A stretch of DNA of 64,000 nucleotides, taken from a virus. The DNA is taken from positions 1 to 64,000 of the IMG/VR virus record IMGVR_UViG_3300030102_001905; one strand, written 5' to 3'. Each line of letters opens with the position of its first letter. Positions within the stretch are counted from its first letter, which is position 1. The notes beneath the pieces were generated by a model that was not told the origin of the DNA, ran no database searches, and saw nothing but the letters and a program-made list of their open reading frames with translations. Of this stretch, positions 4,027 through 37,751 are shown one piece after another. The position numbers and the translations under genes are program-made.

Positions 4027-4028
4027 TT

Positions 4029-6899: not shown

Positions 6900-6923
6900 A
6901 CTTAAAGAGTTTATTTTCAATCT

Positions 6924-6954
6924 TTTGTAAACTTAAAAAATAAAACTAATTTTG
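6924..6954 (+). promoter_or_regulatory. Bacteroidota-type sigma-A promoter candidate (TTTG-N19-TAATTTTG)
   Basis: TTTG at 6924-6927, a 19-nt spacer, then TAATTTTG at 6947-6954 match the published Bacteroides/Flavobacterium consensus TTTG-N19-21-TAnnTTTG. It sits in the 59-nt gap before the 1080-aa ORF, 4 nt from its ATG. Confidence 0.35.
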
Positions 6955-6958
6955 AACT

Positions 6959-19200: not shown

Positions 19201-22200
19201 CTGAACCTAAACTTTGATGAGACACATAACCTAAAACAGATATTCTTTAATGATTGGATTAATAGTAATGCAATAAATGAAATACTGCTTGGTGATCAGG
19301 CTGTATCTCTAAAAGATTCTGTTGATCAAGTTAAAAGAGCTAAGATGCAAAATGCATCATACTATAGTGCATATAGTGCTGTTACTGCTCCTGAACTAGG
19401 TGTAACTCATCCAGTAGAAGATATTAGTTTAGTTACATTAGAAGAGCCTAAGTCAGGTAATATAGATGTTGCGGATGCACAAATGTATATTACTACTAAA
19501 GCATTCAGATATATGTTCTTTGGTTTTGGTAAGTTAAGTCCAGCACAAGCAAAGCTGATAACAGATGTAGAAAACGGTATACCAATTAGCTCAGATAGAA
19601 TATTTGGTACAGTTGAAACACCTGAAGGTTTAGCTAAAATGCAGGCTATGCTTAACTCTAAAAAGCTTGTTTATGGTGATGGTAGTACATTCTTAAAGAT
19701 GTCTGCTTTTGTACTTACACCTGACTATACTTCAAACTGGGATGGTTCTAAATGGGTTCCTAAACCTAATAGAGTAGCACTTCACAATCTAAGAGTAAAG
19801 CTTGAGGCTATTGAGGATACAAAGGACACCATAAGTATTGCAGCTCCATTGAGTGCAATCAAAATGAAAAAACAGCGTATTAACTCTCTTGATGATCTAA
19901 AAACAGATAGTCCATTCAGTAATGGTCATACTACACTAGATGCAAGATTTATGGGATTACAAGTTCTAAATCCATCTAATAAGTTAGAAATAGTAGATCC
20001 TACACAGATAAAAGAAATTGCAACATCAGAGCAAAAAGATGATGTGTTTGTTGATGGACTTAACATGACTGTTGGGGAAATCAGACAAGCATATAATGAT
20101 GCTGTCTCAAGAAGAGTTGTACTAAAATATAAAAACAAAAGAAATTTAATCTTCAGTTTGGATACCGCTCTTGATGAGTTTAGAGTATCTAAAGAAGAAG
20201 GAGCTATAACTCCAAATCTTTCTGCATTCTTAAATTATGCAGTTGCTGGATTAAAAGCATCACAAGCTAGTAGTAACTTATTAGAGTTCTTTTCTACTAC
20301 AGACGGTGTTCAAAATTATAATCTTAATAACCCTATTACTATTAAGAAGTTTGAGCAGTTGTTCTTTAGTTACTTCAGTAGAGGTGTATTATCTGAAAGA
20401 ACACCAGGTGTTTCATTAACTCTTGTTTCTGACTTTGGTAATAGTGTATATAGAAGAGTATTTGAAATAGATGAGAATGGAGTACCAGTAAGATCAGAAG
20501 TTATAAGACAAGATGTTTGGGAAAGAATGGGTAACAAGCCTGAGCTTTCTAACATAGAAGATCTTACAAATAACAATATACCCAAAGAAGGTGTAGTTGT
20601 ATTAGATAGATTAAGATCTGGCCTTATAGAGTATGATGCACAAGGAAAACCTACAGGGCAGAGATATACTGAGATGATGATGCCAGCTCACCAGAAAGAG
20701 GTTATGGACTTAATACAAAATACTGATGCACCTATTCCTGATGTAGTAGCTAAAATGTTTGGTGTAAGAATACCATCACAAGATAATCATTCTACAGTAA
20801 ATATGAAGATGGTTGATTTCTTACCTGTATATTTTGGATCATCAGCAATGTTTGCAGAAGAGCTAATAGAAATATCAGGTGCTGACTTTGATATTGATAA
20901 AGTGTTTGCACAGATAAAAGAGTTCTATGTAAAAGATGATCAGTTTATTGAGTATGGTAAAGGTAAAAATGTAAGTGAAAAATACAGTGAGTATGTTCAA
21001 TATGTAAATAACAAAGTAGAACAGAAAGGAACTCAGTACTCAGAAGCATTAGGTATCTATAACAATAGAGAAGGAGCTGCAAGAATTCAAAACTCAGTTG
21101 ATGATGTTGAACAAGATATTGCAACTGATGCAGGCTTATCAGAAAATGCACTAAATGCATTAAAGATTCTTGGCTTACCTATTACACAAAAACAGTATGG
21201 GGAGTATGTAGCTAAACATGGAGAGCCATATGAGGCACCTATGAATAATGATGTACTTGACTATAGATATGCACTTATGGGCAACCGTGGTGTTACAGAA
21301 GGAAGTAATCCTATATCATATCAACCAGCAACAACAGATGTACTTACAGATACCCTTGACTTCTTAGCAAGTCAGTCTGAAGTTTTTGCTGAAAGAGTTC
21401 AAGAAGACAACGTTGATGTAGATAATTTATCAGGTAAGATAAAAGCATTTAGAGCTAACAAGGGTGCTTCTATTGGTGCTATTGTATTACCTAACTTATA
21501 TTTAAGTTTATTAACTGAGTACAACATCAAACTGAATGAAAGCATAAGTATTAATAGTAAATCATATAATAACTTTGGTAGAACGCTAGATGATAATGGT
21601 CAAAGAAAACAAGATACATTATCAGCACTAATTACTATGGCAACAGACAATGCAAAAGATAGACTTGTTGCTAAGTTAGGATTAAATAGACATGCAATGG
21701 GTGTTGTTGCTAACTTGACAGCATTAGGTGTACCTATACAAACTTCTATACTATTAATCAATCATCCAGTCATACAAGATTTATACTCAGAAGCTCTTAA
21801 TAAAAAAGATAAGCTTGATCCTGGTATGGATACTTTAGTAAGGAACAAACTTGCAGAGATTAAGAAAGAAGTCAAGGCAGAGCCTGTTAATGATAGATTC
21901 TTGTTAGATGTTATAGATAACCCACAAGATGAAAGTGCAGGAGAACTTAAAGGTGTTCTTTCATTATTTAGCCAAGTATTGAGAATTAAAAATTACACTG
22001 GTAAGATGGGAGCTGTTACAAGTTTATCTAAAGGTTTAGGTAAAAATGTAGCTAGCATTAGAGAAAAATCTACTGATATAAAATCACTATTTGCTCAAGA
22101 TGCACCTATGGATTTATCTCCTATATATAAAGGTAAGACTTGGCAAAATCAATACTTAAAAATATTCTATCAGATTACAGATGATTTATTACCTGCAACA

Positions 22201-23676
22201 TTCTTAACTGCAAGTGCATCTTTTAATACTATATTATCAAGTGTTCTAGACAATATGGATACTAGAGGTATTAGCTTTAATGAAGAGGTAATAGAAAGTA
22301 TTTCTACAGATCTATTGTCTTACTTAACAATAAAAGCATACCAACAAAATCAATTAGAGAATGATCAACAAAGAGTTGCTACACTAAGTAATGATATATT
22401 ATATCCAACAGATTATGAATCTATAAATGATATAATAAATAGATTAAAGGGTACAGAAGAAGGTGCAAACAACTTCTTCCTAGACAACTTTATAATTAGC
22501 CTGCGTGCTAATGAAGTTGATAACCAAACAGGTCTTAATCTTGCAAATGCAAATACTTTTAGAAATCTATCAGCTGCACAAAAAGTTGACTTACAAAGTG
22601 ACTTTGCAAAACTGTTTGGCTCAGTAAAAACTAAGAATGATGCAATGTCAATTGTAAACTATATAATGGTTAAAGATGGATTGCAAGTTAAATATGCATC
22701 ACTTTTAGAAGCTATCAGTCCTTTTGTTATAGGTAATTACCTTGATCAAATTAACAGTGTAGAGAAGGCCCTAAGAGGTGAAGCAAGTTTTGAGTCTGTA
22801 TTTGGTATTAGCCAAGAAGAATTACAACAAGAGTTTGAGAATGGATATCTTTTGTCTAATGTTTCTGGTGCAAAGTTATACACGTTTGTACGTAATGAAG
22901 TTACTGGTAGTTTACCTCAAGGTGTATCAGTAAAAGATGATGTTGTAACTGTAGCTTGGGAAAAAATGGGAATAGAAAACCCACCAAAATATTTAAGAGT
23001 AGGTGTTACAAATATTTTATCAGGTGTTACAAATTATAAAACCTATGGTAGAATAGAAGAATCAAATAAGTATGAGGTTGTAGAGACTATGGGATCAAAT
23101 CAACAGACTGCTATTGGATTTATGTTTGGTGATAGACCTACTTATAAAAGTGTAAGAGACTATGTAAAAAAGAAGAACCAAGATACTTCTGTAACAGACA
23201 TAACAGATAGCGTTGCTATTGATGAAACCAAAGGTATTCAAGAGCAGGTTCTTAAAAATGATAACAGTAATATTGAAGCAACAGAAAGTTCAGTAGAAGT
23301 ACAATTAGATCCTGAAGCAGAAGCTGTAAACTTAGCTAATACAGCAGCATTGCTTGAACAACTTGGCATGGACACTGAAGCACAAGATAGAGGTGAGGCA
23401 GAGGCCAATGTTATTGATGATGTTGATCAGTCATTACCAGAAGTCAGTCAAGTTGAAGAACAACTTATGCTTGATTTTGAAACTGAAATAGATGAGCAAT
23501 ATCCAGAGATAGCAAATTTCTGGGATGCAAACATCCAAGGAAATAAAGACGCAATGAGATTGCTAAGAGCTCAAAAAATATTATCTTTAGAAGACTTTAT
23601 AGGGAAATATGAAGAAGGCGTTTATGATGATACAGAACAATATTTAGACTTTATTAAGTCTTGTATATTAAAATAA
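10201..23676 (+). CDS. Giant polyvalent virion protein (4491 aa) with a C-terminal crAss-like two-barrel RNA polymerase signature, an HExxH motif and an N-terminal hydrophobic region
   Basis: A 13,476-nt ORF with no stop. GVRIPSQDNHS...ISGADFDIDKVF (DFDID = nt 20884-20898, residues 3562-3566) parallels NRAPTLH...NADFDGDQM of RNAP beta'. HEAFH lies at nt 16495-16509 (residue 2099). Gly/Ala-rich hydrophobic stretches lie at nt ~10861-11970. Confidence 0.7.
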   Translation: MEDNNNTSLDTTIKSSERQASVIPQEQFNFVPIESMFETPETDLAAAIATNPDEISLIDQHKVDIDRYGIDAMANLGVARPTLATDTFDPVLQQNPPQNTYSNVRNILQARSDGPAADEVAPTFSGIRANNFLRYFEHPEFEELGYRPYSNIEEYYNANSTVWDDMARMSGQFSSLVGSGFTSVYRSIGDIFDDDAYFTAPDLNTATEFEDAMAIGNSSRGGALAWTNNLLLNSGYTFGIIGSIAVEELALAGATVLTGGGAAPAAATRTGYNVLRLGKLGLQVPKFFSKSREFLNTLRNVEAAKDFWSAASTGGKVLGQMFTPNTIYAIKNLKTAKNVSQNAVNLAKMRAGFGGFYRDLRAVNLAIAESKLEGGMVYNEIVREGVDIMQNKSGGTVTPDEMATIQSEAAKGAYYTSLANAPIIYASNWFVLGNALGGFNRSLGRVFNDSFRKGFAGRIIKTKATRDAAGKLNKNVFSDAGAGFKGWLKKVRAGGIKGNAGMAAAATLRYFAANVAEGIQEVSQEAVSSATRGYFTTVLEDPMAGGIELRNDMILSGMGDQLSGEGFSVFMSGFLMGGIVQGPQKLFFQGVPAIYDYGLNPLGINVGTQKQKDAFAEYKKNKEELIKSLVETHNNAWNTQVDDPTAMFDPNKLNFMVQKQVADAMKSNVFDQDKFGFIDQKDFAKFQQMYTIFQMGTSNIFRGQLQDYLTMTDEELAEAFPSSKTDIKQGKIRGRIQDMINNIDKVENQYNEAKNRFQNPFDRTQYKKGTREYIQEALKESAYEHARYLYMFTQDGFTRALERSNSIFQNLANDPLFENMAASDMTVLLDLDAIDNELRLLATEIIINEGDNATTRKDKKKKEEKLKRLTAIKAILTDPKNLTKSGAFDRRKISSLRKEFYNYVRYMASSAGSFVDNTKIDEALKEVVDYHALKDRAKVYDKAIEYLQNPERFNEIVDRQLEINKEIYKNLQKRHKQNIEKYIEIVEANQLVNELAELGVYGDPTEVKNFLMSGNANYLKSFYTEQGLVDKRVDKAKYEQIQRKLDTYRKATEVDTTEATETSEKQAQVDAQETKNTQDQILEENEVDVILPETNNTPMLNELLERRYKRYASTQAVIGEKVLPFEEWRNTEEGLTLQNTFNAIKKVWAQGYYTTDAKGNAVFVEVSEADLKSEKGFKEYLNSREARESDLIASVLKSAGLEISDIVEQEETLPEEGDIVKGDKNKTIYKKGIIANVVKITTIDPVSGDAVALFKLVDSQGNNLPSALLDLVSSQYGTFDNASSAVAALKKIEKTAPDSADFLFDDVVLNQGMLVYDKNGKEFVVLSTPKQIQGGYLRLVASEDNIANVKEREKKVIKLQEGQFANNYSVQELKFEVLPKNVSRLNISEPITPYPHMNFTTGESREGALSRYNAIISELTPAEIAALELVVTLDPQGGTESGFYTIPGNPSNPYIKIKRSKYVIGLRINNPDTQARVNLVLERNGIPQVDSDQNIFAYLPNQNVEMVDPQGNIIDPRNMSRDQANNTIFVSNTLSQQMSKPDILKLAQNNFALNALLVSTLDSLGITSETTAVLSANDLPFSMSIIIEGGVMDYDNSSTRSLRDLNYQSADNQGNFLVYDLKMGKDGKRTEQSITNLEGSEARALRDQVEAGLKAQGLWNQMIEGTDRYVAAVLLPNGTYGLVNLKAEQFSAEDLTGLATDLVERAQLTQKENLDDKGKEKDLAYNSEYNAQLGESLFISTIPGYTVQLQVNPFGKIQMQLFDKTSQQQVGKTVELSKDKINDTSLSVSDKMQTLIDSFNEEADIKASGVSVSGKNFRNSFPDGTTVEEIISKTSTNVTPQVIKQQKLRLTADSAAIQASRDVDANTDRKVEPIARPEPTVTIAEEAEESILDLSEEEFNDYAADDFVNMPSEFMEHIVNKKLRGEELNDREKQVERIKLSEITLAVAKRGGEGSVTIETETETVEKKDSLSQVIRQLDELKAQLLEGVDGRSRNKVLRENKEYQDLLKIRKALEKEANKVLPAELSNEDIEDINAFTVWASDNLPDYIDIQDIATLGDNLKAGGVRVGAFVLGLNNIAGNVKVSGTIYTGARSPFKYHEAFHGVFRMLLSDQDIARYRSIARKEVRAKLRAEGKSFEKELQRFRNSADTYTNMSRKELENEYYEEYMADEFEKFKTNPKSTKTDASVKSLFTRILDWIRSVFSSYNKNELQTLFEKIDSGKFKGASIASNEFTAPLVEGISVEANALIPYASERSGDKVGYIYLDSDIADPMIRSIAAMFLNRTAAIEGAYNPQAVLNELMDDFAWLYSPDNPTNQNKDELQKKRLSEIELAFDNYSQEILEETVKLLNIISDQDVDQEFTVDEFQDDTGLRTTSQYDKDASLIGGFRSLSSKLRAYIATTTVASTDYFGNEELVDGEKLIVAVNFVDAYNGLLKSVKSIEDPLKILQSMYFFGQDNPQAGAVVNRILQDVGISEEELLSGASLPVELKNAPLLQSILKGFENFRVDYIFNERDSQGNIRIYSASERDDINSQLDRWSQAFISKRKQLVSNPKRKRSTKTLLEDISSDLQVSEKAITNVRMENDSKKYSELLFDLVGIKLSPMYLQFSMVANRPSNKLTVKQKALVNLYAQETPLSVDDVNQLNLLLQQDENIFATDDSGMSSRLKVMSINNAPFDETIGASVFKNPNGDLVYAHQLPTYHLKKVASLNNQVELEKIKDSDPYMDNNYLLNNSAFNKMSEENRLKVTRVAGSKVGQSLQSESDINDNISGVTSTSTYGDFTPQEFALSVINNYTALFNTKSNKVQTVESLDEEGKAIVTALAPVLIRVMEASNTGDMINLPVIKAVDFVNGEAVLTEEAVDVYVNQIRTEFSRINRESNEATLTGEEILGYNSIDGRAYKLHNTRLLLSNETKTKLEGIAVSQGKDGNPITLDESLKFAGITMTQLRKEVVDNLEIQFNEFQELITELKIKDQISKNITDGLVVAQGVSRKNTIASAKALNLNFDETHNLKQIFFNDWINSNAINEILLGDQAVSLKDSVDQVKRAKMQNASYYSAYSAVTAPELGVTHPVEDISLVTLEEPKSGNIDVADAQMYITTKAFRYMFFGFGKLSPAQAKLITDVENGIPISSDRIFGTVETPEGLAKMQAMLNSKKLVYGDGSTFLKMSAFVLTPDYTSNWDGSKWVPKPNRVALHNLRVKLEAIEDTKDTISIAAPLSAIKMKKQRINSLDDLKTDSPFSNGHTTLDARFMGLQVLNPSNKLEIVDPTQIKEIATSEQKDDVFVDGLNMTVGEIRQAYNDAVSRRVVLKYKNKRNLIFSLDTALDEFRVSKEEGAITPNLSAFLNYAVAGLKASQASSNLLEFFSTTDGVQNYNLNNPITIKKFEQLFFSYFSRGVLSERTPGVSLTLVSDFGNSVYRRVFEIDENGVPVRSEVIRQDVWERMGNKPELSNIEDLTNNNIPKEGVVVLDRLRSGLIEYDAQGKPTGQRYTEMMMPAHQKEVMDLIQNTDAPIPDVVAKMFGVRIPSQDNHSTVNMKMVDFLPVYFGSSAMFAEELIEISGADFDIDKVFAQIKEFYVKDDQFIEYGKGKNVSEKYSEYVQYVNNKVEQKGTQYSEALGIYNNREGAARIQNSVDDVEQDIATDAGLSENALNALKILGLPITQKQYGEYVAKHGEPYEAPMNNDVLDYRYALMGNRGVTEGSNPISYQPATTDVLTDTLDFLASQSEVFAERVQEDNVDVDNLSGKIKAFRANKGASIGAIVLPNLYLSLLTEYNIKLNESISINSKSYNNFGRTLDDNGQRKQDTLSALITMATDNAKDRLVAKLGLNRHAMGVVANLTALGVPIQTSILLINHPVIQDLYSEALNKKDKLDPGMDTLVRNKLAEIKKEVKAEPVNDRFLLDVIDNPQDESAGELKGVLSLFSQVLRIKNYTGKMGAVTSLSKGLGKNVASIREKSTDIKSLFAQDAPMDLSPIYKGKTWQNQYLKIFYQITDDLLPATFLTASASFNTILSSVLDNMDTRGISFNEEVIESISTDLLSYLTIKAYQQNQLENDQQRVATLSNDILYPTDYESINDIINRLKGTEEGANNFFLDNFIISLRANEVDNQTGLNLANANTFRNLSAAQKVDLQSDFAKLFGSVKTKNDAMSIVNYIMVKDGLQVKYASLLEAISPFVIGNYLDQINSVEKALRGEASFESVFGISQEELQQEFENGYLLSNVSGAKLYTFVRNEVTGSLPQGVSVKDDVVTVAWEKMGIENPPKYLRVGVTNILSGVTNYKTYGRIEESNKYEVVETMGSNQQTAIGFMFGDRPTYKSVRDYVKKKNQDTSVTDITDSVAIDETKGIQEQVLKNDNSNIEATESSVEVQLDPEAEAVNLANTAALLEQLGMDTEAQDRGEAEANVIDDVDQSLPEVSQVEEQLMLDFETEIDEQYPEIANFWDANIQGNKDAMRLLRAQKILSLEDFIGKYEEGVYDDTEQYLDFIKSCILK

Positions 23677-23682: not shown

Positions 23683-26600
23683 ATGGCTACGTGTTTAAAT
23701 GTAAATTTACCGGAATACAAAGCACTAAAAGATGTGTATAAAACAGATGTTGATACTGCTAATGTTGTAAATAACTGGCAGAAACTCAACAATGTAGATA
23801 CATTTCCTACAGTTTTAGAAGCACAAGACTTTGTTAGTAATCAAAAACTTGCCTTTTCATTAAGACAAAGACAGTTTAGTGATGCATTGCTGAACAACTT
23901 GCGTAGAGAAAGAATTGGACATAGTTATCAGGGTAGCTTTTATGTTAATAACTCAAACCCAACTACAAGAGAATATGATGAGATGTACTTAGCATCTAAT
24001 CTAAAAAGACTTAAGAGATATCTGCAGATAAATAATATACCAGAAAATAGAGTTACACTAGAAAGAACAGCAAAAACATATAGAGTTACTGTAAATGAAG
24101 ATATGTTTTCAGCTAAAGATATGATAGAGTCTTCTAGATCATGGGATACTCCAAGAGCTAGAGCTGTTGTAATGCATCTTAAGAGAATGTTCCCACAGAT
24201 AAATGTACAAATGTTATCTGTAAGTCAGGCAAGACAAATGTATGAAGGCTTTCCAGAGTGGAAGAAAAACAATGTGCCATTTGATCAGATGAGATCTTTT
24301 TATGTAGATGGCGTAGCATATTTAATAAAAGGAAGAGTAACTGATGAAGTAGCAATAGAAGAAATGTTACACCCTTTTGTAGATGCAATTAAAATAGATA
24401 ATGAAGGATTATTTAATAGCTTACTAGCAGAAGCAAGAAGCAACTTTCCAGAGATGGTTCAAGAAATTGAAGATTCTTACAATGAGGAGAGAAGTTTTAA
24501 TGATGTAGAAAGAGATTTAGAAATTGTAACACAGGCTTTATCTAGACACTTTAATAAGGAGTATGAGAATCAGCCAACCAAAAGATTCTTAGATAGAGTT
24601 AAGGAGGTACTTGAGTGGTTTAGAAATATAATAAACAACTTAAATGAATACCTTACTGGTAGAGCTATACCTGTATCAGAGATAAATGCTAATACAAGTA
24701 TGAGTGATATTGCCAAACTTCTTAATACAGAAGGAATACAATTTAAACTTGAGAGTAGAGTAAATGGTAAAGTAAGATATAGCTTAAGCCCTGAAAAGAA
24801 AAAGGTTGTTGATGCAGCTCTTGCTGAGGCAAACGGATTACAGGCAGAGATTATAGACAGACTATTTTTCCAAGCAAGAGCAAGTGAGCAAGAGATTGAT
24901 TCTTTGTCAGCTAACTTAAATGATACGTCATCAGGTACAATTGTTACTCTTAATGAAGAGAATCATACATATGTAGATATTACTAATGGTGAAATATATA
25001 CATCAGTAACAACTGCCATCAAAGGTGAGCTTAAGAACCAAGAAGATGTTCAGCTTAATTTAGATATAGGTAATGATGTAGATGCATTGCTAGATGCTAT
25101 AGTAACACATAGAAAACTAGAAGATGTTATTCCTGAGATGAAAATTCTTAGTGAAGAAACAGCTAAAGAAACTTATAACAATCTTTCTACAACTCTTGCT
25201 AACATAATGCCAGAGGGATCTGTTGCTCTGTCACAGGTTGTAGTATTTGATGAAGCTACAAAACTTGCAGGTACAGCAGACTTAGTAATTATAGATAAGA
25301 ATGGTAAGATAAAAATAGTAGATCTTAAGACCACAAAGAATTCATTAAAAACATTGTCTTATACAGATACTATATCTGGCAGAAGACAAAGAAAGTTATA
25401 TGATAAAGAATGGGACCTTTCAGAGGATAGCTTACTAAAACAAGCTGGTGTTGATACACTATCTACAAGAGGTCAACACAATTTACAAGTCAACTTATAC
25501 AGGAGAATGTTTGAGAACATGGGTTATACTGTATATGATGGAGACTATGCTGCATCTACAATACACTTTGTAGCCGGCATTACTGGTAAGGGTAAAAATC
25601 AAAAGTTTGATGGTAATATAAAAGCAGATCAATGGGTAGATCATCCAGCTTCTCAGAACGCTCTTTATGTTGACAAGCTTGTACCAAGAATTACAGATAA
25701 TGTTGAGTCAGAAAAATTAGAGAGTGCTATTGAAAATGCAGAAGATGCAATTTACAAAGGAGAAAAAGAATTCCAAGAAGATGAGTTTGTTGCAGACTCT
25801 ATTGATCCAAATGAATATCCTGAATACAATACAATCTTAGGTGCTTTAGAGAACTATAGAATTGGTTTATTAGATAGAAAGAAAGCTCTTGAGCAAATTA
25901 AGAGTAGTATTTTTATGGATAGAACAAAGGAACAAACTCAAGAAAATATTGCAAGCACATTAGCATATATAGGTATTGCAATAAGTGAGGGTCCTATCTC
26001 TAGGTCTCAAGCTTATTCTTCATTATTAAGAGATGCTTTAAAACAAGTTAAGTCTTTTTCTGACTATATACAAGATCCTAAAAACTTTGGTAAGTCAGAG
26101 TATATTACCTATGCTCTTAACTTTGATAGATTTATCAAAACCTTTGAGGGGCTCTATGCTATTGCAGATTCAAAAGAATTAAATGCTACACAAAGATCCT
26201 TAGTGCTTTCTTTACAACTAGAACTAAATAAACTAAGTGGAGGTAGTACAAATCAGCCTGGATTGATAGATACAGCAATTGATAACTATGTAAAAGAGAT
26301 TATAAAAACTAGATCTGGTAGAGACTTTGGAGGAGAAGGAAGTGTATTTACTATGGAAGATCTAGATGAGCTTATGAAGATTGCTCCTGATATCAATGGT
26401 ACAGAGTATATGACAAGAGACATGGCAACATCTCCTGATGTCATACTTGCACTAATGGATAAGATTTATAAAGCAAAGAAACAAGAATTACTTGACAGGA
26501 TTGGTGACAGAGAAGCACTAATTAGAGCAGCTGGAGCAAAGCTTTTAAAACTATCATCAGAGAGTGATGTTGAAAAGCTTTATGATTTTATGCTTGAGAG

Positions 26601-29367
26601 AGATTCAGAAGGAAACTTTACTGGGTTTTATACACAAAAAATAGGACAGCAGTATTATAACCTACAACAGGAACTAAGAAATGAGTTGTATGATAATGAT
26701 GGACATCCTTATGAGTATAGAGATATAAAGAATCTTGATGAGGCAAGTGAAGAAGATATAAAGTATAATAAAGCATTAGCTGAAAAGAAAAGCAGGTTAT
26801 CAGAATTTTTTAGAGCAGAGACTAAAGATGAGAATGGTGATCTTGCTGACGGAGAATATCATAGATATACAGATGAATTCAAGGCTGAAAGAGATAAGTT
26901 TGAGTTCTGGGTTCCTGGTAGTGAGGCTAGTCCAAATGGTACTTGGTATAGAAAACCTAGAATATCAGATAGAGACTATGCAATCTATGAAGCAAAGTAC
27001 TATGACTTTATTGGATACACAAAAGCAGTTAGAGTAAATGGTCAACCTACCGGTGCTATAGTAAAAGATCAAACATTTAGATCTCCAAAGCCGGAATATA
27101 GAGAGGCAAGAGAAATAACTAGCAAAGGTGAAGATATGCGTAATGCAAAGTATGTAGAGATCATGAGTCCTACAGATGCATTAGGTCAAGCTAAAAAAGA
27201 ATTCTATGAGTTATTTATAGACTTATATGAGAATGATTTACTTAATAAATTACCAGTGGGTGTAAGAACGCAGATGCTTGGACGTGTGCCTTTAGTTAAA
27301 AATAATGTTATTGATGATCTTAAAGGCAAACCAAATCTAGTTACTAAACTATATGCTAAGACTATTGGTAGTAATGCATGGAATATGTTTAAGCAAACAT
27401 CTCAACAAAAGGGTGTTGTAACTGATGAGAATGGTAATATGATTAGTACTCTTCCTATCTTCTATACAGGTAGACCAAAGGTTGACGGTGAAATGGAAGT
27501 TGTAGAAAAAGAGATTAGTAATCTACAAGCAGAGTATAAAAAGGGCAGGATAGTTAAAGACAAGTATGATAAAGAACTAGCAATACTTAATGGTAAGTTA
27601 TCAAGACTTAGAGCTACACCATCCCTAGGTCAAATTAGTACTGATATGACTACAAGTCTTTTGAAGTTTAGTGCTATGGCACAGAACTATGAGACTATGG
27701 GTACCATTGAAGATACTCTTAATGCTATGATTAAAGTATTAGAGAATAGAGAGTATACTCCTGCTGATACTTCTATAGAGACAGGTAAATGGTTAGATGG
27801 TCAATTCAAAAAAATTGGTAAGAAAAAAGGAGAGGGTGTTGAAGCAAATGTTGTAAGAAGAGCTAAGAAGTTTATGTCTATGGTTTATTATGACAATGAA
27901 CTTGTATCTAAAGGCTTCTTTGATAAACTTGCTGATGGTTTAATTCAGCTATCTTCTTTGTCATATGTTGCATTTAACCCTTTTGGTAACTTTAATAACT
28001 ACGTTATTGGTAGAATAAACAATAACATAGAGCTTCTTGGTGGTAGATTCTTTGGTAAGGCTGCTTTTATGAGAGCAAGTCTAGAGTTTAATAAAAGAGC
28101 AATACCGGATCTAATAAAGAGAACAAGTTATAATACTACAGATCTTGCTGACATAGCAACATTAGGTGTTATACCAGGTTTAAATAAATCAGATTATGAT
28201 CCAAAGAAACCAAATAGTAAGTACGAGGCATTTGTAGATCTATTTAGAATGATGGATAAGATGTCTGATATACGTGAGCAGTCTGCTGCAACTACAGGAG
28301 AAAGAAGTTGGTTTGCACGAGCTGCTGAATGGGGATATGTTCTTCAGGATTCTGCAGAATATAATGTACAGACTAAGGTGGGTATGGCCCTTCTTATGGA
28401 TACTACAATAAAAAATAGCACAACTGGTGAGACCTTATCTTTATATGATGCATTTGACTATGATGCTAAGACGCATAAGAATGTTCTTAAAGAAGGATAT
28501 GATACTATTGTTAAGAAGAATGGTACTGAAGTAGAGTATACAGATCAGTTTAGATATGAATTAAGAAATCAAATCAGAGAGGTTAACAAACAAATACATG
28601 GTAACTATGCAAGAGAAGATAGAATGGTTATGCAAAGCACAACTATTGGTAATCTTGCGGCTCAGTTCCATAAGTGGGTTGCTCCAGCTATTAGAGCAAG
28701 ATACCAAAGAGAATACTTTGATGAGAACTTAGGATGGATGGAAGGTAGATATATATCATTCCTTAAGTTTTTATCTTATATGAAGAATGAAATATCTAAA
28801 GGTAACCTACAGATGAGTAGTTATGGTAAAGGTTTCTTAAAAGAGTATGGCTTTACTGGTGAAGGAGGAAACAGAGATCAGAGAGCAAAGAATAAATTGT
28901 TTGGTTTCTACAGAACTATGGGTGAGATTGGTATTATGTCATCCGTATTCTTACTGAGTCAGATATTAAACTCAATATTAGCAGGAGAAGATGATGATGA
29001 TGAGGTAACTAAGAGATTTAAAAATATGGCCAAGTATCAAGCGGATAGAACATATAAAGAACTTATTATGTTTACACCACTTCCTCCGGGGTTACAGCAA
29101 CAATTCCAGATGTTAAAATCACCTATAGCTTCTACTAGAACATTGGGTGAAATAGGTGAGGCATTATCATTAACTGTAATGACACCTCTTGCATACATGG
29201 TACAAAGTGAAAAAGATTTCTACGCTAACTCTGAGTATGTGTACCAGAACAAGCCTAGAAAGGGAGAGCTCAAGGTTTATAAGAACTGGAAAGATGCTGT
29301 TCCTATTTTATATACTATTCAGAAATGGGATGCTTACTTAAACATGGAAGATTTCTTTATTAAGTAA
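23683..29367 (+). CDS. Giant virion-type protein (1894 aa) containing a RecB-like PD-(D/E)XK nuclease motif set
   Basis: GTADLVIIDKNGKIKIVDLKTTK (nt ~25270-25335: D...D-x-K) is followed by QVNLY (QxxxY, nt 25486-25500). A hydrophobic segment IGIMSSVFLLSQILNSILAG lies near the C-terminus. Confidence 0.6.
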   Translation: MATCLNVNLPEYKALKDVYKTDVDTANVVNNWQKLNNVDTFPTVLEAQDFVSNQKLAFSLRQRQFSDALLNNLRRERIGHSYQGSFYVNNSNPTTREYDEMYLASNLKRLKRYLQINNIPENRVTLERTAKTYRVTVNEDMFSAKDMIESSRSWDTPRARAVVMHLKRMFPQINVQMLSVSQARQMYEGFPEWKKNNVPFDQMRSFYVDGVAYLIKGRVTDEVAIEEMLHPFVDAIKIDNEGLFNSLLAEARSNFPEMVQEIEDSYNEERSFNDVERDLEIVTQALSRHFNKEYENQPTKRFLDRVKEVLEWFRNIINNLNEYLTGRAIPVSEINANTSMSDIAKLLNTEGIQFKLESRVNGKVRYSLSPEKKKVVDAALAEANGLQAEIIDRLFFQARASEQEIDSLSANLNDTSSGTIVTLNEENHTYVDITNGEIYTSVTTAIKGELKNQEDVQLNLDIGNDVDALLDAIVTHRKLEDVIPEMKILSEETAKETYNNLSTTLANIMPEGSVALSQVVVFDEATKLAGTADLVIIDKNGKIKIVDLKTTKNSLKTLSYTDTISGRRQRKLYDKEWDLSEDSLLKQAGVDTLSTRGQHNLQVNLYRRMFENMGYTVYDGDYAASTIHFVAGITGKGKNQKFDGNIKADQWVDHPASQNALYVDKLVPRITDNVESEKLESAIENAEDAIYKGEKEFQEDEFVADSIDPNEYPEYNTILGALENYRIGLLDRKKALEQIKSSIFMDRTKEQTQENIASTLAYIGIAISEGPISRSQAYSSLLRDALKQVKSFSDYIQDPKNFGKSEYITYALNFDRFIKTFEGLYAIADSKELNATQRSLVLSLQLELNKLSGGSTNQPGLIDTAIDNYVKEIIKTRSGRDFGGEGSVFTMEDLDELMKIAPDINGTEYMTRDMATSPDVILALMDKIYKAKKQELLDRIGDREALIRAAGAKLLKLSSESDVEKLYDFMLERDSEGNFTGFYTQKIGQQYYNLQQELRNELYDNDGHPYEYRDIKNLDEASEEDIKYNKALAEKKSRLSEFFRAETKDENGDLADGEYHRYTDEFKAERDKFEFWVPGSEASPNGTWYRKPRISDRDYAIYEAKYYDFIGYTKAVRVNGQPTGAIVKDQTFRSPKPEYREAREITSKGEDMRNAKYVEIMSPTDALGQAKKEFYELFIDLYENDLLNKLPVGVRTQMLGRVPLVKNNVIDDLKGKPNLVTKLYAKTIGSNAWNMFKQTSQQKGVVTDENGNMISTLPIFYTGRPKVDGEMEVVEKEISNLQAEYKKGRIVKDKYDKELAILNGKLSRLRATPSLGQISTDMTTSLLKFSAMAQNYETMGTIEDTLNAMIKVLENREYTPADTSIETGKWLDGQFKKIGKKKGEGVEANVVRRAKKFMSMVYYDNELVSKGFFDKLADGLIQLSSLSYVAFNPFGNFNNYVIGRINNNIELLGGRFFGKAAFMRASLEFNKRAIPDLIKRTSYNTTDLADIATLGVIPGLNKSDYDPKKPNSKYEAFVDLFRMMDKMSDIREQSAATTGERSWFARAAEWGYVLQDSAEYNVQTKVGMALLMDTTIKNSTTGETLSLYDAFDYDAKTHKNVLKEGYDTIVKKNGTEVEYTDQFRYELRNQIREVNKQIHGNYAREDRMVMQSTTIGNLAAQFHKWVAPAIRARYQREYFDENLGWMEGRYISFLKFLSYMKNEISKGNLQMSSYGKGFLKEYGFTGEGGNRDQRAKNKLFGFYRTMGEIGIMSSVFLLSQILNSILAGEDDDDEVTKRFKNMAKYQADRTYKELIMFTPLPPGLQQQFQMLKSPIASTRTLGEIGEALSLTVMTPLAYMVQSEKDFYANSEYVYQNKPRKGELKVYKNWKDAVPILYTIQKWDAYLNMEDFFIK

Positions 29368-29407
29368 GTTTAAACAAGACAAATTTTCATTAAAAAGATT
29401 TGTACAC

Positions 29408-29449
29408 ACCAACAAGAATGGTTATATTATTATATAGACCAACAAGAAT
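29408..29449 (+). repeat. Exact 12-nt direct repeat ACCAACAAGAAT x2 (30-nt period) bracketing a TATATTATTATATAG motif
   Basis: ACCAACAAGAAT occurs at 29408-29419 and 29438-29449. The AT motif copy lies at 29423-29437. All sit in the 107-nt intergenic region upstream of the envelope-protein operon. Confidence 0.6.
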
Positions 29450-29474
29450 TTAGATTAATTATTAAACTTTAAAT

Positions 29475-30719
29475 ATGAAAAACTATTTAAGTCTGTTGGT
29501 ACTTATACTTTTATTGTGCATACCAAACTTTTCTTATGGACAGGGAGATAAGGGTAAATTTTTCAAAGCACTATATAAAGATTTCTTACAATATGGAACT
29601 ATCTATGGTGCAGGAGATGCACGAAGTTCATATGAATCAAGCAGACAAGACTTTTTTGTAGAGAGACCAGCAGATGGTGATCTTTATGGTATTCCAAGAG
29701 TAATTAATGTAACAGAATACTATGACTTTGATTATAGAATTGGATTGGGAATCAGAAAACTAGCTAGGTTTGACTATGAAAGAAAGCCTAGAAACTGGTA
29801 TGATGGAACAGAGCAACAATTAGCATTTACTGCACCTAGCTCAGCACTAGCGGGATTAGAATATCAATTTCATTTTGAAAAAGAAAGACTACGTGGAGAG
29901 GACTTTGAGAATCATAGATACTTTATTAAGCATACAGGTAAACATCATATTGTTAAAGCTGAGTCAAGAGAAGTTGGTAGTATAAACTTAAACTATAAAT
30001 CAGCAGAAGTAAGACTAAGACTTCCAATAGGTAAAAAGTTTAGCATATCTGCGGGTACAATCTTCCGTACTCATGAACGTGCTTATGGGTATAACCCAAT
30101 TGAAATTTGGTTAAATGAAACTGAAGAATGGACTAATCCTCAGACAGGGGAAGTAATTGAATATCCAGCTAATCCTTGGTACTCTTTAGGATATGAATAT
30201 GGATATTATGATGTAGCCTATGAGTCAACAAGTATTAATCCTAATACAGGAGAAGAAGTAGAAAACTTTGATTGGTATTGGTATAATCCACAAGATCAAA
30301 TAGTAGCATACTCTGATCTACAGTTTAGAAATACTGTGTTTAGAGATTTAATTAATAGATATAATAATGAACAATGGGATCTTATTGATCCGTTTGGTGA
30401 GATTGCTCCTATTGTTGGATTTGATTTCTATCATTATAAAAATAATTTCTGGTTGCATGCTTATGCTAATTACATACTTCCATATCATAAATATATTATG
30501 GGAGATGAAGACTTTAGTTATTTAAATAGAAATAACTGGGGTAAAGGAGGTTTAAAAAAAGATTCAGAACCAGAACAATGGGATGATTATAATCTAGGTG
30601 TAAATTTTGGCTGGAGACTCAGCAAAAACTTTGGATTATATATAGAAGGTGAATATGGTAAATTTTGGGATAGTGAGCTATTTCAAAGCAGTGTAGGAGT
30701 AAATTATACATTTAGATAA
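29475..30719 (+). CDS. Secreted outer-membrane beta-barrel-like protein (414 aa)
   Basis: N-terminal signal peptide (LLVLILLLCIPNFSYG/QG). The protein is rich in aromatic/Gly alternating strands. Its C-terminus ...GLYIEGEYGKFWDSELFQSSVGVNYTFR resembles an OMP terminal beta-strand signature. Confidence 0.5.
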   Translation: MKNYLSLLVLILLLCIPNFSYGQGDKGKFFKALYKDFLQYGTIYGAGDARSSYESSRQDFFVERPADGDLYGIPRVINVTEYYDFDYRIGLGIRKLARFDYERKPRNWYDGTEQQLAFTAPSSALAGLEYQFHFEKERLRGEDFENHRYFIKHTGKHHIVKAESREVGSINLNYKSAEVRLRLPIGKKFSISAGTIFRTHERAYGYNPIEIWLNETEEWTNPQTGEVIEYPANPWYSLGYEYGYYDVAYESTSINPNTGEEVENFDWYWYNPQDQIVAYSDLQFRNTVFRDLINRYNNEQWDLIDPFGEIAPIVGFDFYHYKNNFWLHAYANYILPYHKYIMGDEDFSYLNRNNWGKGGLKKDSEPEQWDDYNLGVNFGWRLSKNFGLYIEGEYGKFWDSELFQSSVGVNYTFR

Positions 30720-30720
30720 A

Positions 30721-31281
30721 ATGAAAAAATTATTATTACTTATATCTATTTTCTTTTTATTGGGTTGTGAAAAAGAAGAAGAGGTTGTATTAGAACAAGT
30801 GTTTGAAATAACTTTAAATGGTGAAACATTTGACCCATATGAAAGATATGCTAAAGTAAATTCATTTGCGGGAAGTAAATATGTAGATGGATTTCTTAAG
30901 AAGATATTTATATTGTATCTACAAATAGATGATGGTGAAATTAGATTAGATAGACAACACTTTGCATTATATTGTTTAGACTCAGATGCAAATGATGATG
31001 GAGAACTATTAGATATTGGAACTTATACCTGGGAAAACCCAGACAATAAATATGCTGGTGTTGAAATACCGGGAGATCAAGAGTATGTAGTTTGGAATGA
31101 AGTAATAGTACAAGATGCAGGTCAATTAGGAGGACCACATACAGGCTTAATCTGTTTAACTGCTGAAGGTGCGTTTTATAATCCTTACATACAAGATACA
31201 ATGACTGTATCTATGAGACTAGAAAACTTTCCAATTGGGCAAGACATTGAATCAACTCCATATGGATACTTATTAAATTAA
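30721..31281 (+). CDS. Lipoprotein (186 aa), possibly surface-exposed
   Basis: Signal peptide with lipobox LLG-C (MKKLLLLISIFFLLGC). The residues after the Cys are acidic (CEKEEEV), like the Bacteroidota lipoprotein export signal. The ATG lies 1 nt after the previous stop. Confidence 0.65.
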   Translation: MKKLLLLISIFFLLGCEKEEEVVLEQVFEITLNGETFDPYERYAKVNSFAGSKYVDGFLKKIFILYLQIDDGEIRLDRQHFALYCLDSDANDDGELLDIGTYTWENPDNKYAGVEIPGDQEYVVWNEVIVQDAGQLGGPHTGLICLTAEGAFYNPYIQDTMTVSMRLENFPIGQDIESTPYGYLLN

Positions 31282-31298
31282 AAACTAAATAATTAAAA

Positions 31299-31589
31299 AT
31301 GGCACAGAACGCACCTCAGATTGGAGAACAAACTAAAGTTACTTTAGATCTAAAAACAATAGGTATGATTATAGGTTTTACAATAACCTTAGCTACTATG
31401 TGGTTTACTCTAAAAGCAGATATAGCACTAGCAATGGAAAAACCAGAACCACCTATTGATAGAGTAGAGTATGATCTTAAAGATGAACTAATTAGGGAAA
31501 CAATTATGAACACTCAAGAAGACGTTGAAGAAATAAAGGGTACATTAGAGAAGGTAGAGCAACGTCTTTATGAATTGAGTACTAAATAA
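31299..31589 (+). CDS. Small bitopic membrane protein with a C-terminal coiled coil (96 aa), spanin-like architecture
   Basis: One TM helix (IGMIIGFTITLATMWFTL) is followed by a charged heptad-like tail (EDVEEIKGTLEKVEQRLYEL). Confidence 0.5.
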   Translation: MAQNAPQIGEQTKVTLDLKTIGMIIGFTITLATMWFTLKADIALAMEKPEPPIDRVEYDLKDELIRETIMNTQEDVEEIKGTLEKVEQRLYELSTK

Positions 31590-31594
31590 AAGAC

Positions 31595-31993
31595 ATGAAA
31601 AAAGTACTACTAATACTATTATTACTAGTAGGTACAACTGCATCAGCCCAAGATTGGGTAACAGATGATGGATTTGATAGTGCAATCTCAGGTAAAAGTG
31701 CATTTGGAGAAGACCAAGACATTATAGTTATAGAGTTTTATGCAGAGTTTAATAAGGACAATGCATTTGCAGATTGGAATAAACTTGAAGGAGTTAAATA
31801 TTATAGGTGTGATATTGCTAAATCACCTGGAGCTAAGAAAAAATATAAAGTAAGAATGGCTCCTACTATTATTGTATTCAAAGAAGGATTCAAAGAATTC
31901 ACTTACAAAGCTGGTCTTGATCTAGAGTGTCCAGTAACATTAGAAGAGCTACAATCAGATATAGAAGAACTATCTAAAGCTAGCCAGTTTTAA
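31595..31993 (+). CDS. Secreted thioredoxin-fold protein lacking the CxxC active site (132 aa)
   Basis: Signal peptide MKKVLLILLLLVGTTASA/Q. IIVIEFYAEFNKDNAF...YKVRMAPTIIVFKEG aligns with TrxA ILVDFWAEWCGPCKMI...YGIRGIPTLLLFKNG. WCGPC is replaced by FNKDN, while the cis-Pro (APT) is retained. Confidence 0.65.
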   Translation: MKKVLLILLLLVGTTASAQDWVTDDGFDSAISGKSAFGEDQDIIVIEFYAEFNKDNAFADWNKLEGVKYYRCDIAKSPGAKKKYKVRMAPTIIVFKEGFKEFTYKAGLDLECPVTLEELQSDIEELSKASQF

Positions 31994-31998
31994 TAATC

Positions 31999-32409
31999 AT
32001 GGAAAAGTACATATACAAAGCTAAGTTGGTCAGAGTTGTTGACGGTGATACTGTTGACGCTATGATAGATTTAGGTTTTGATACTTGGATAAAGAAAAGA
32101 ATTAGATTTCACGGAGTAGATACTTGGGAGTGTAGGACGAAGAACTTAGAAGAGAAGAAGAAAGGCTTAGCAGCAAAGGCACGAACTAAAGAATTACTAT
32201 CAGATGTATCAGAAAAGAAGATGTTCTTCCGAATTAGATCTTATGGCACAGGTAAATATGGTAGAGTGCTAGCAGAGATCTTTATACTGAATGATCAGGG
32301 TATAGAGATAGACGTGTGTAAAACTTTAATAGAGGAAGGACATGCATATGTATACCACGGGGGTAAGAAACAAACGCTTGTCCCTCCTAATAGAGCAGCA
32401 GGTCTTTAA
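31999..32409 (+). CDS. Staphylococcal nuclease (SNase/thermonuclease)-like nuclease (136 aa)
   Basis: VRVVDGDTVDA...IRFHGVDTWE...GKYGRVLAEI...EEGHAY matches SNase motifs (DGDT, RL.GIDAPE, D.YGR.LA). No signal peptide. The 3' end overlaps the nrdA 3' end by 4 nt (convergent). Confidence 0.7.
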   Translation: MEKYIYKAKLVRVVDGDTVDAMIDLGFDTWIKKRIRFHGVDTWECRTKNLEEKKKGLAAKARTKELLSDVSEKKMFFRIRSYGTGKYGRVLAEIFILNDQGIEIDVCKTLIEEGHAYVYHGGKKQTLVPPNRAAGL

Positions 32410-36103: not shown

Positions 36104-36277
36104 ATGAAATATAAGAAGTTACCAAAGCAAAAAATGAGTAGGCAAAAGTTTAAATTACTTTTAGGCAAGGGCGGTGAGCTTGATGAGATAATGGAAAAGT
36201 CTATGTTAGAAAAATATAATAAGGGTGGTAAGAAAGCTAAGTTAGGTGGAGGTACCCATAATACATACAGTGGATAA
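36104..36277 (+). CDS. Lys-rich miniprotein (57 aa, MKYKKLPKQKMSRQKFKLLLGKGG...KGGKKAKLGGGTHNTYSG)
   Basis: Hand-translated. Its stop overlaps the ATG of the fibre-like gene (TAATG at 36275-36279). Confidence 0.45.
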   Translation: MKYKKLPKQKMSRQKFKLLLGKGGELDEIMEKSMLEKYNKGGKKAKLGGGTHNTYSG

Positions 36278-37281
36278 TGAATATTTTAACTGACGTATTA
36301 AGTTTAATAAGAAGAAGCCAGTTTGTCAAGAAGGCAGAACTGAATGATGTTCTTGTTCTAGGTACTAATGAGGAACCAGAAATGACAGGTGTTGCCTCAC
36401 CAATACCTTATAAAAGTATTAAGATCATAAAAGTAAGGGATCTTAAGGTTGCTGCAGAACACTGTGCTCACGCAAATTCTCCAGCTACTCCAGCTGCTGG
36501 CACTGGTCAAGTATATCAGAAAACAGTATCTGATGAAGTTCTTGAGACATGTACTGTATTTTACAGATCTCTGAAGTCTCTGAGCAGCAACCTCACCCTT
36601 GCTACATCTGCTGATGATGATTATATAGAGATAACCACATCAGGAGAGCCAAACACTGCTGCTAATGTTGGTAGTGGATTTGGTATTTGGAAAGATAAAG
36701 TTGGTGAAACATTAAACTTTAGATCTCTAGTAGGAGGTTCTAATGTTAATATTAGCCAAAGTGGTAATGAAATTACCATAAGTGCAACAGGCGGTGGTAG
36801 TGGAGAAGCTAATACTGCAAGTAATGTTGGTCATGGTGGTGGCTTCTTTAAGCAGAAGACAGGAGTTGATTTAGAATTTAGAAGTCTAACTTCACCTGAT
36901 AATACTTTAAGTATTGCACAGAATAGTAATACTGTTGACATAACATTGCCATATGTATATGCTGAGATGTTGATAGAGCAAACTGGTAGTTCAGCTCCAA
37001 CAGCTAATATACTGCATAATTCAACAGGTAAAACATTTTCTTTTGCCCGTACAAATGCAGGAATGTATGATTTAACATATAGTTCAGCTGTTGCTGACGC
37101 AGACAAAGTAGTCATAAATATAGGTATGGCATTTAAAAACAGATATGCATATGCACATGTTTATGATGCAGCTAATGATGGATTTAAAATTAGTTCAATG
37201 ACGCATTCACCTAGTGGAGGGTCAACTTTGGCAGATGATTTATTATATAGAACACCATTAACAATAAAAATATATCCGTAA
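36277..37281 (+). CDS. Tail fibre / receptor-binding-like protein with two ~53-aa repeats (334 aa)
   Basis: The repeats are ANVGSGFGIWKDKVGETLNFRSLVGGSNVNISQSGNEITISA (nt ~36661-36790) and SNVGHGGGFFKQKTGVDLEFRSLTSPDNTLSIAQNSNTVDITL (nt ~36820-36950). This is an NVG.G..[WF]K.K.G..L.FRSL pattern that I recall from phage fibre proteins. Confidence 0.55.
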   Translation: MNILTDVLSLIRRSQFVKKAELNDVLVLGTNEEPEMTGVASPIPYKSIKIIKVRDLKVAAEHCAHANSPATPAAGTGQVYQKTVSDEVLETCTVFYRSLKSLSSNLTLATSADDDYIEITTSGEPNTAANVGSGFGIWKDKVGETLNFRSLVGGSNVNISQSGNEITISATGGGSGEANTASNVGHGGGFFKQKTGVDLEFRSLTSPDNTLSIAQNSNTVDITLPYVYAEMLIEQTGSSAPTANILHNSTGKTFSFARTNAGMYDLTYSSAVADADKVVINIGMAFKNRYAYAHVYDAANDGFKISSMTHSPSGGSTLADDLLYRTPLTIKIYP

Positions 37282-37751
37282 TGAGTACAAAACCTAAAAA
37301 GAAGTTCAAAGAAACCAAGGTGGGACAATTTCTCACTGAAAAAGTACCTAGTATATTAGGCGTTGTTGGTGATGTATTGCCTGATGCAGGAGTACTGGGT
37401 GTTGTAAAAGGTTTGATAGAGGGACAAGATCCAAAAGTTCTATCAGCTGAAGACAAAGAATACGCATTAAAGCTGCTAGAACAAGACATGGTTGAGCAGC
37501 AAGAAGTAAGTAAGAGATGGGAGGCTGATATGAAGTCTGACTCATACCTTTCTAAAAATACAAGACCTCTAACTTTGATATTTTTAACTGTTTCATTAGT
37601 TATATTTATCTTGTTAGATGGCTTTAATATAGACTTTAGTATAGATAGTGGTTGGGTAGATTTACTCAAGTCACTTTTAATTACTGTCTATGTGGCTTAT
37701 TTTGGTTCCAGAGGGGCTGAAAAATTTAAAACAATTAGTAATAACAAATAA
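37281..37751 (+). CDS. Holin-like membrane protein (156 aa)
   Basis: A charged/coiled N-terminal half is followed by C-terminal hydrophobic helices (PLTLIFLTVSLVIFILL; LLKSLLITVYVAYFG). The architecture is reminiscent of the '3TM holin' family. ATG overlaps the previous stop. Confidence 0.45.
   Translation: MSTKPKKKFKETKVGQFLTEKVPSILGVVGDVLPDAGVLGVVKGLIEGQDPKVLSAEDKEYALKLLEQDMVEQQEVSKRWEADMKSDSYLSKNTRPLTLIFLTVSLVIFILLDGFNIDFSIDSGWVDLLKSLLITVYVAYFGSRGAEKFKTISNNK

Follow-up and report, generated by a model that had tools for sequence, protein, structure and literature searches.

Why does a phage carry a compact run of genes whose products are largely destined for the envelope of its host, and what would these products do there? 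The question is raised by a locus in IMG/VR virus record IMGVR_UViG_3300030102_001905, of which positions 1 to 64,000 (the window) were analysed. Five open reading frames (ORFs), g1 to g5, lie back to back on the plus strand (Table 1), separated by gaps of 1, 17, 5 and 5 nt, and three of them, g1, g2 and g4, are the only ORFs of the whole window with a credible Sec or lipoprotein signal. An earlier note, made from the letters of this DNA, had described them as a five-gene accessory operon. We find a smaller conserved unit, the syntenic core trio G1-G3-G4 encoded by g1, g3 and g4, with g2 and g5 as sporadic riders, and we propose, at a probability of roughly 40%, that this trio is a spanin-like module, not homologous to spanins, which would link the envelope layers and disrupt the outer membrane.

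The extent of the unit could be deduced from related loci. The window proteins were mapped onto 80 such loci from IMG/VR (L numbers) and the neighbouring ORFs were clustered into families (f numbers); 64 of the loci form a non-redundant set, and adjacency was counted over 58. Only G1, G3 and G4 turned out to be universal among the clustered neighbours. G3 and G4 are adjacent in 58 of 58 non-redundant loci, separated or overlapping by no more than 15 nt, while G1 and G3 adjoin in 51 of 58 at a median gap of 2 nt, and insertions are found exclusively between these two genes. Median identity to the window amounts to 62% for G1, 66% for G3 and 52% for G4, compared to 39% for the large subunit of ribonucleotide reductase (RNR), and the upstream neighbour of g1, a gene of 1894 codons, is detectable in just three other loci. 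Homologue numbers are likewise nearly equal, with 2,316 for G1 and 2,552 for G4. Linkage persists among distant relatives: the trio is intact in the Tara contig L082, although G1 is only ~32-35% identical there, and in L085 (27% identity) the genes after G1 encode an Ala/Glu-rich protein, a g2-like lipoprotein and a G3-like protein. For this tightly linked module, the sequences show export signals, folds, strict synteny and co-distribution, and in relatives a position within lysis cassettes.

At the level of single proteins, the first description held up well. g1 had been called an outer-membrane-protein-like beta-barrel with a signal peptide, g2 a lipoprotein with an acidic, surface-export-like segment after its Cys, g4 a signal-peptide thioredoxin-fold protein without CxxC and g5 a cytoplasmic SNase-type nuclease, and all four assignments are borne out by the evidence below. 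For g3, described as bitopic with a periplasmic coiled coil, the single transmembrane domain (TMD) and the acidic helical tail stand, with its periplasmic placement weakly favoured.

G1 starts with MKNYLSLLVLILLLCIPNFSYG, followed by Q, its signal peptide ending in ...SYG directly before this Gln. A hydrophobic h-region and then Gln are present in 64 of 64 distinct orthologues, and Gln after the signal peptide is the Q-rule for signal peptidase I substrates of Bacteroidetes (PMC5837995). The AlphaFold (AF2) model is an all-beta meander with a mean local confidence (pLDDT) of 69 and a global score (pTM) of 0.61. In Foldseek searches against the PDB, every top match is an outer-membrane beta-barrel with a probability of ~1, at template-modelling scores (TM-scores) of only 0.2-0.3; these matches comprise porins, omptins, autotransporter barrels, FapF and BamA, and the viral library agrees. 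The C-terminus, ...GVNYTFR, resembles the beta-signal of outer-membrane proteins and recurs in the family as ...NYTF(R/K), with ...NYLIF in distant members. We regard G1 as a predicted outer-membrane beta-barrel protein with a cleavable signal peptide and an aromatic C-terminal beta-signal, on a model of moderate quality. A segment at residues ~94-126 is strongly conserved yet poorly modelled (pLDDT ~30 at residues 99-124), which is consistent with a site for partner binding or docking. No Pfam family matched G1 at E<=1, and a profile built from 21 diverse members retrieved nothing from the PDB sequences at E<=10. An outer-membrane enzyme of the OMPLA, PagP, PagL or omptin type is not supported, since no catalytic motif was found, the model being too poor for exclusion: invariant positions among members of 24-61% identity are mainly Gly and aromatic residues, and the sole near-invariant Ser and His (S311 and H328) lie on neighbouring strands, ~8 residues out of register. 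Among viral proteins of UniProt, a single one is strongly related to the model in structure, BFVD entry A0A516LKJ4 (342 aa, E 1e-24, TM-score 0.5-0.6, 23% identity).

The fold of G4 can be assigned with higher confidence. Its signal peptide ends in ...ASA before Gln, a signal peptide plus Gln being found in 57 of 57 orthologues, and the protein matches Pfam Thioredoxin PF00085 (1.2e-5, 25.7 bits at a cut-off of 23.5). The model, at a pLDDT of 87, displays the canonical thioredoxin (Trx) fold with a Foldseek TM-score of ~0.7 to thioredoxins. CxxC is replaced by F-N-x-x-N, in which the invariant Asn53 takes the place of the nucleophilic Cys of WCGPC in the alignment, and neither of the two Cys of the window protein is conserved among orthologues. 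The invariant residues cluster in the former active-site loop, the cis-Pro loop (RMAPT) and the loop after beta5, which together constitute the substrate groove of thioredoxins. Since the groove loops are kept while thiol chemistry is lost, we suggest that G4 is a protein-binding adaptor. Thioredoxin folds serve as thiol-free protein binders elsewhere, as in the b' domains of protein disulfide isomerase or in E. coli thioredoxin, the processivity subunit of T7 DNA polymerase. G4 resembles such redox-inactive binders in retaining the groove loops, with Asn in place of the nucleophilic Cys, and differs from them in being phage-encoded within an envelope operon and secreted to the periplasm. A function as RNR reductant in the manner of T4 NrdC, considered because of the adjacent RNR genes, was rejected on account of the missing CxxC, the unconserved Cys and the signal peptides of all orthologues. 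In L180, two G4 paralogues are located on either side of a g2-like lipoprotein.

G3 is composed of an N-terminal tail of 17-20 aa, one TMD (~residues 21-38), an LPxP hinge and a very acidic helical or coiled-coil domain of ~55 aa. In the orthologue alignment, conservation resides in the soluble tail, while the TMD is variable and constitutes the least conserved part, as expected for a membrane anchor carrying an interaction domain. Besides generic coiled-coil Pfam families, which 10 of 30 orthologues matched weakly, no Pfam family or PDB entry matched G3. The positive-inside count, with 2.46 versus 1.43 Lys and Arg residues in the two flanks, weakly favours an orientation with the N-terminus inside and the C-terminus outside, that is, with the coiled coil in the periplasm. 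The orthologues of L016, L040 and L073 carry a calcium-loop-like DxDxDGxxD insert in the N-tail, and in L010, L012 and L014 a second G3 paralogue is found directly before a hydrolase of the DUF5675 type.

The two remaining genes follow a different pattern. The g2 protein carries the lipobox LLG before its Cys, which is followed by E-K-E-E-E. The motif C-x-K-(D/E)2 occurs in 7 of 7 close family members, and the same motif was experimentally defined in Capnocytophaga as the optimal signal for lipoprotein surface export (PMC5080379). With this lipoprotein export signal (LES), g2 would belong to the surface-exposed lipoproteins of Bacteroidota, and it is predicted from its sequence to face outwards. 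It matches no Pfam family, is detected in 8 of 80 related loci and has 598 homologues versus 2,316 for G1, about a quarter. Its position floats, as it is found between G1 and G3, after G4, or ~5 kb off. g5 matches Pfam SNase PF00565 (4.9e-7, 30.6 bits at a cut-off of 21) and phrog_452 (3e-37), lacks a signal peptide and shows the motifs DGDT, RFHGVDTWE and YGR, which we take to be the Ca-binding and catalytic Asp/Arg/Glu positions of SNase. Of the 80 loci, 5 carry a SNase gene near the trio; L001 and L002 among them are near-identical copies of the phage of the window, leaving 3 of 78. g5 would thus be a cytoplasmic nuclease unrelated to the envelope module, while g2 would be an optional surface-exposed lipoprotein riding on it, which may partner or cap G1, or else mask receptors or act in exclusion. 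L001 (9811-10167) and L002 additionally contain a 118-aa gene between g2 and g3 that encodes a holin-like protein with two TMDs and a coiled-coil tail; it is missing from the window (31282-31298), though the L001 and L002 contigs are 94-100% identical to it, which points to a presence/absence polymorphism within the module.

What the trio does is suggested by its surroundings in relatives. In 39 of the 64 non-redundant loci, a gene for a peptidoglycan hydrolase follows G4 at a distance of no more than 3 kb, in every case on the strand of the trio. The slot is occupied by four unrelated families (Peptidase_M15_3/phrog_894, PG_binding_1+Amidase_2, phrog_3000/phrog_33083 and DUF5675), and by a fifth, Glucosaminidase, directly after G4 in L176. 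Genes of holin type flank the trio on both sides, including f10 (Pfam Phage_holin_4_1), which comes after the amidase, f24 (phrog_3427) and the small families f7, f22 and f46 with two to three TMDs. Typical gene orders are f7-G1-G3-G4-amidase-holin, for example in L015, and f22-G1-G3-G4-M15 peptidase; L042 seemed to be devoid of a holin until an f22 ORF with a TTG start was found. The f24 family adjoins the trio in L062, L067 and L075 and is also represented in the window (Table 1). Several cassettes encode further exported proteins, namely f19, a mini outer-membrane barrel of 137 aa, f21, a secreted protein of 76 aa that has a poly-Lys/Arg tail and is encoded immediately before G1, and f175 and f200, Tyr/Trp/Pro/Asn-rich lipoproteins without export signal between G1 and G3; example positions are L010 12745-13158, L045 7765-7995, L056 10237-10668 and L004 9227-9955.

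A survey of 2025 reported only unimolecular spanins for phages of Bacteroidetes (PMC12596118). Candidates of this kind, combining a lipoprotein with a C-terminal TMD, were not found in the cassettes except for one small ORF in L067. Neither were embedded lipoproteins: the relatives' cassettes contain none, no lipobox ORF lies inside G3, and the window holds no lipoprotein besides g2. In searches of G1, g2, G3 and G4 against the spanin families of Pfam and PHROG, no match was obtained at E<=1. The trio nevertheless shares several properties with two-component spanins such as lambda Rz/Rz1. G3 combines an N-terminal TMD with a charged helical tail, its partner would reside in the outer membrane, the genes are tightly linked and lie beside endolysin and holin genes in most relatives, and the trio is proposed to act after peptidoglycan removal. 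In contrast to Rz/Rz1, to which it has no sequence relationship, the outer-membrane subunit would be a beta-barrel of the 16-strand class instead of a small lipoprotein, a soluble Trx-fold protein, G4, is present as an obligatory third subunit, and the tail of G3 is short and lacks Cys for disulfide-linked dimers. The only lipoprotein at hand, g2, is optional and predicted to point outwards. Since the feature expected of an outer-membrane spanin subunit was not found and spanin homology is absent, the trio is not a member of the spanin family; our claim is that it may work like one.

This also bears on the two-fold proposal of the earlier note. Its spanin-equivalent set of inner-membrane coiled-coil protein, lipoprotein and outer-membrane protein does not agree with the data, since the lipoprotein is absent from most loci, its surface-export signal would direct it to the outer face of the outer membrane, where a spanin subunit would be misplaced, and the constant third partner is the Trx-fold G4. 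The broader notion of an envelope-spanning set with a possible role in lysis gained comparative support from the related loci.

We infer the topology of G3, the contacts within the trio, its expression timing and its role in lysis, and we propose the following model. The trio would form one functional unit, made late and exported by the Sec machinery of a Flavobacteriia-type host. G3 would be anchored in the inner membrane and extend its acidic coiled coil into the periplasm, G4 would be a soluble periplasmic adaptor whose old, cysteine-free thioredoxin groove grips a partner, and G1 would be inserted in the outer membrane. After removal of peptidoglycan by the endolysin, the bridging trio would act on the outer membrane, destabilising or fusing it, and so do the job of the Rz/Rz1-type spanins of Proteobacteria phages via unrelated proteins, with a barrel replacing the lipoprotein. 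A bridge from the inner membrane via the periplasm to the outer membrane is favoured by the layout of G3, which is that of an inner-membrane spanin subunit, together with the groove loops of G4 and the conserved segment of G1. That the trio constitutes an undescribed three-component machine for breaching the outer membrane, and with it the missing last lysis step of an abundant marine clade of Bacteroidota phages without Rz/Rz1-type spanins, is a further step, which we put forward as tentative and rather doubtful.

The lysis cassettes could be read in another way, with the trio setting or delaying the time of lysis rather than breaking the outer membrane. G3 would in that case be a holin or antiholin with one TMD, whose periplasmic tail is bound by G4 much as antiholin RI binds holin T in T4, and G1 would act as a sensor or anchor in the outer membrane. 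The lysis-cassette context is shared by this assignment, and a small protein with one TMD and a highly charged tail is the generic description of a holin; G3 even has a faint match to the PHROG holin family phrog_1296 (E 0.037). In L011, L045, L065 and L078, cassettes of the M15 type, it is moreover the sole clear non-signal TMD protein near the endolysin, and G3 and G4, a one-TMD protein with a periplasmic domain and its small secreted periplasmic partner, are never found apart. Yet in holins the TMD does the work, whereas that of G3 is its least conserved part, the same cassettes usually contain other holin-like genes as well (f7, f10, f22, f24, f46), and control of a holin has no need of a large conserved barrel in the outer membrane. 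Compared to T/RI, homology is missing, G4 has a cleavable signal peptide instead of a signal-anchor-release (SAR) anchor, the tail of G3 measures ~55 aa versus 163 aa in T, and T4 has no barrel partner in the outer membrane. We therefore consider a timing function improbable.

Several observations weigh against a role of the trio in lysis. This role rests on gene neighbourhood, and lambda bor is an example of an unrelated envelope gene adjoining a lysis cassette. As the loci are phylogenetically related, the 39 of 64 cases are not 39 independent events; the independent observations are about five endolysin replacements. In the 64-kb window itself, no endolysin is detectable. The endolysin of this phage lies ~41 kb from the trio, 9-10 kb past the end of the window, and was located on L182 (positions 41-961, minus strand there and plus in the orientation of the window) as a protein of 306 aa with PG_binding_1+Amidase_2 domains; it sits after a fibre-like gene of 506 codons. 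Lysis genes are commonly scattered in large phages, but in this phage the connection of the trio to lysis is indirect. In the group of L008, L024 and L028-L035, sigma-like, Nei, MazG and PolB genes take the place of lysis genes behind the trio, and a terminator-like element, a G+C-rich hairpin with a T-run, lies directly upstream of G1. This suggests that the trio is able to form a transcription unit of its own outside a lysis context. With regard to the proteins, the orientation of G3 is weakly predicted, the DxDxDG insert in the N-tail of three orthologues would fit an outside N-terminus, and its periplasmic part of ~55 aa is short compared to known inner-membrane spanin subunits. The model of G1 is mediocre, as are its TM-scores of 0.2-0.3 to solved barrels.

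The position of the trio away from lysis genes, in the window as in the L008-L035 group, would suit the second proposal of the earlier note, surface remodelling or superinfection exclusion, in which exported proteins mask or alter receptors in the outer membrane or block DNA entry of competitors. Phage-encoded outer-membrane barrels are common in metagenomic phages, and for Porphyromonas phages, Q-rule proteins of unknown function were proposed to be modifiers of the outer membrane (PMC10367356). The morons Lom (a barrel of 8 strands) and Bor (a lipoprotein), T5 Llp and Cor are similarly phage-encoded, Sec-exported outer-membrane proteins or lipoproteins, of which Bor adjoins the lysis genes of lambda. 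The surface-export signal, the patchy, moron-like distribution and the floating position of g2 agree with such a function, which suits g2 better than the trio. Morons are single genes, mostly expressed from prophages, and not conserved multi-gene units, and none has a sequence or family match to the module. Exclusion genes are typically single, variable and lineage-specific, whereas the trio is kept across a very large clade, with a conservation above that of RNR. The window contains no integrase or lysogeny module, PADLOC returned no matches, and the sole PHROG match to the Cor family (E 0.47) covers the signal peptide alone. Exclusion or remodelling by the trio thus appears unlikely. A defence or anti-defence role was likewise considered and dropped, as PADLOC found nothing relevant, and virion structural proteins are unlikely given the conserved cleavable signal peptides.

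The RNR genes raise one more possibility, an uptake system in which G1 would be a Tsx-like channel of the outer membrane, assisted by G4 and G3 and supplying the adjacent RNR and nuclease genes. RNR genes are located within ~8 kb in 49 of 78 loci, some of them directly upstream on the same strand, and in the window G4 is followed by the SNase gene. RNR may flank the trio on one side or the other and in both orientations, as a neighbouring module would and an operon partner would not. SNase is rare near the trio in other loci. The trio offers no transporter-like component in the inner membrane, G3 having a single TMD, and no similarity to Tsx or any transport family. We regard uptake as very improbable. 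The spanin-like bridge remains the reading we prefer.

The sequences known so far place the module in an uncultured group. In tblastn searches of g1, g2, g3 and g4 against 50,697 GenBank phage records no homologue was found, and a DNA search against GenBank phages yielded only a short match to SNase. A scan of 185,579 species genomes detected G1 in six contigs of metagenome-assembled genomes only, four of them binned as Flavobacteriaceae/Bacteroidetes; these are probably phage contigs. The closest cultured relatives share at most 35% identity in DNA polymerase. The data suggest a genome of ~112.5 kb for the phage of the window.

Table 1. Positions of the envelope module and of other features in the 64,000-nt window.
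Feature	Position	Strand	Description
g1 (G1)	29475-30719	+	414 aa; predicted outer-membrane beta-barrel, secreted; member of the core trio
g2	30721-31281	+	186 aa; lipoprotein with surface-export signal; accessory rider
g3 (G3)	31299-31589	+	96 aa; bitopic membrane protein; member of the core trio
g4 (G4)	31595-31993	+	132 aa; secreted Trx-fold protein; member of the core trio
g5	31999-32409	+	136 aa; nuclease of SNase fold; neighbour outside the envelope module
AT-rich gap upstream of g1	29368-29474	+	107 nt; possible regulatory region of the module
Direct repeat, copy 1	29408-29419		12 nt
Direct repeat, copy 2	29438-29449		12 nt
phrog_3427 'holin' protein	37281-37751	+	156 aa; two C-terminal TMDs; 1e-17; family f24
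Protein with tail-fibre-like repeats	36277-37281		334 aa; stop overlaps the start of the f24 protein
Further giant ORFs	184-10201	+
Giant ORF	10201-23676	+	4491 aa
Giant ORF	23683-29367	+	1894 aa; weak PD-(D/E)XK match
Three genes beside DNA polymerase	41956-42249; 42422-43339; 43391-44224	-
tRNA cluster	62879-63121	-	Met-CAT, Leu-TAA, Arg-TCT

In the window, the module is embedded between two large blocks. Upstream of g1, the plus strand carries a run of very large genes of 557, 705, 956, 1080, 4491 and 1894 aa, the first of which bears an SLT transglycosylase domain, and g1 to g5 close this run; in many relatives, too, the trio ends a plus-strand block of giant virion-type genes. The giant ORFs, which have no family assignment, probably encode virion or ejected proteins; in L088, ORFs of 2049 and 895 aa come before them. 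g5 and the convergent gene for the RNR large subunit have overlapping stops, and the remainder of the window is taken up by a replication module on the minus strand, comprising polymerase, primase, helicases and recombination genes. Beside the DNA polymerase, a dATP/dGTP diphosphohydrolase N-terminal domain (PF18909), a DUF932 protein and a spore-photoproduct-lyase-like protein are encoded, which may hint at an unusual nucleotide or base metabolism. The protein of 334 aa preceding the f24 member was tried as a candidate endolysin and discarded, as it resembles neither the phrog_3000-type lysin nor any PDB entry.

The AT-rich gap before g1 contains a 12-nt direct repeat, ACCAACAAGAAT, in two exact copies 30 nt apart, which sit inside a TATATTAT..TATA.ACCAAC element. 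The loci L003, L004 and L025 of the subclade retain this element before G1, and it has no further occurrence within the window. It may represent an operator or promoter of the module; a general phage promoter was rejected, as the repeat is confined to the gap before g1.

Passage of the outer membrane at lysis is largely unexplained for phages of Bacteroidota, in which two-component spanins have not been found (PMC12596118). The trio is a candidate of very wide oceanic distribution, as metagenomes and Tara data contain more than 2,300 homologues, and consists of three small, clonable genes. Its Q-rule signal peptides, together with the LES lipoprotein, serve as host markers and point to a host among Flavobacteriia/Bacteroidota for an uncultured phage clade with genomes of ~90-165 kb. 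If the function is exclusion or surface remodelling instead, the trio would be an unusually conserved example of it. If it is lytic, the trio would represent a third solution to the disruption of the outer membrane beside spanins and disruptin, with a beta-barrel as lysis effector, and would provide an annotation for thousands of hypothetical proteins of the marine virome.

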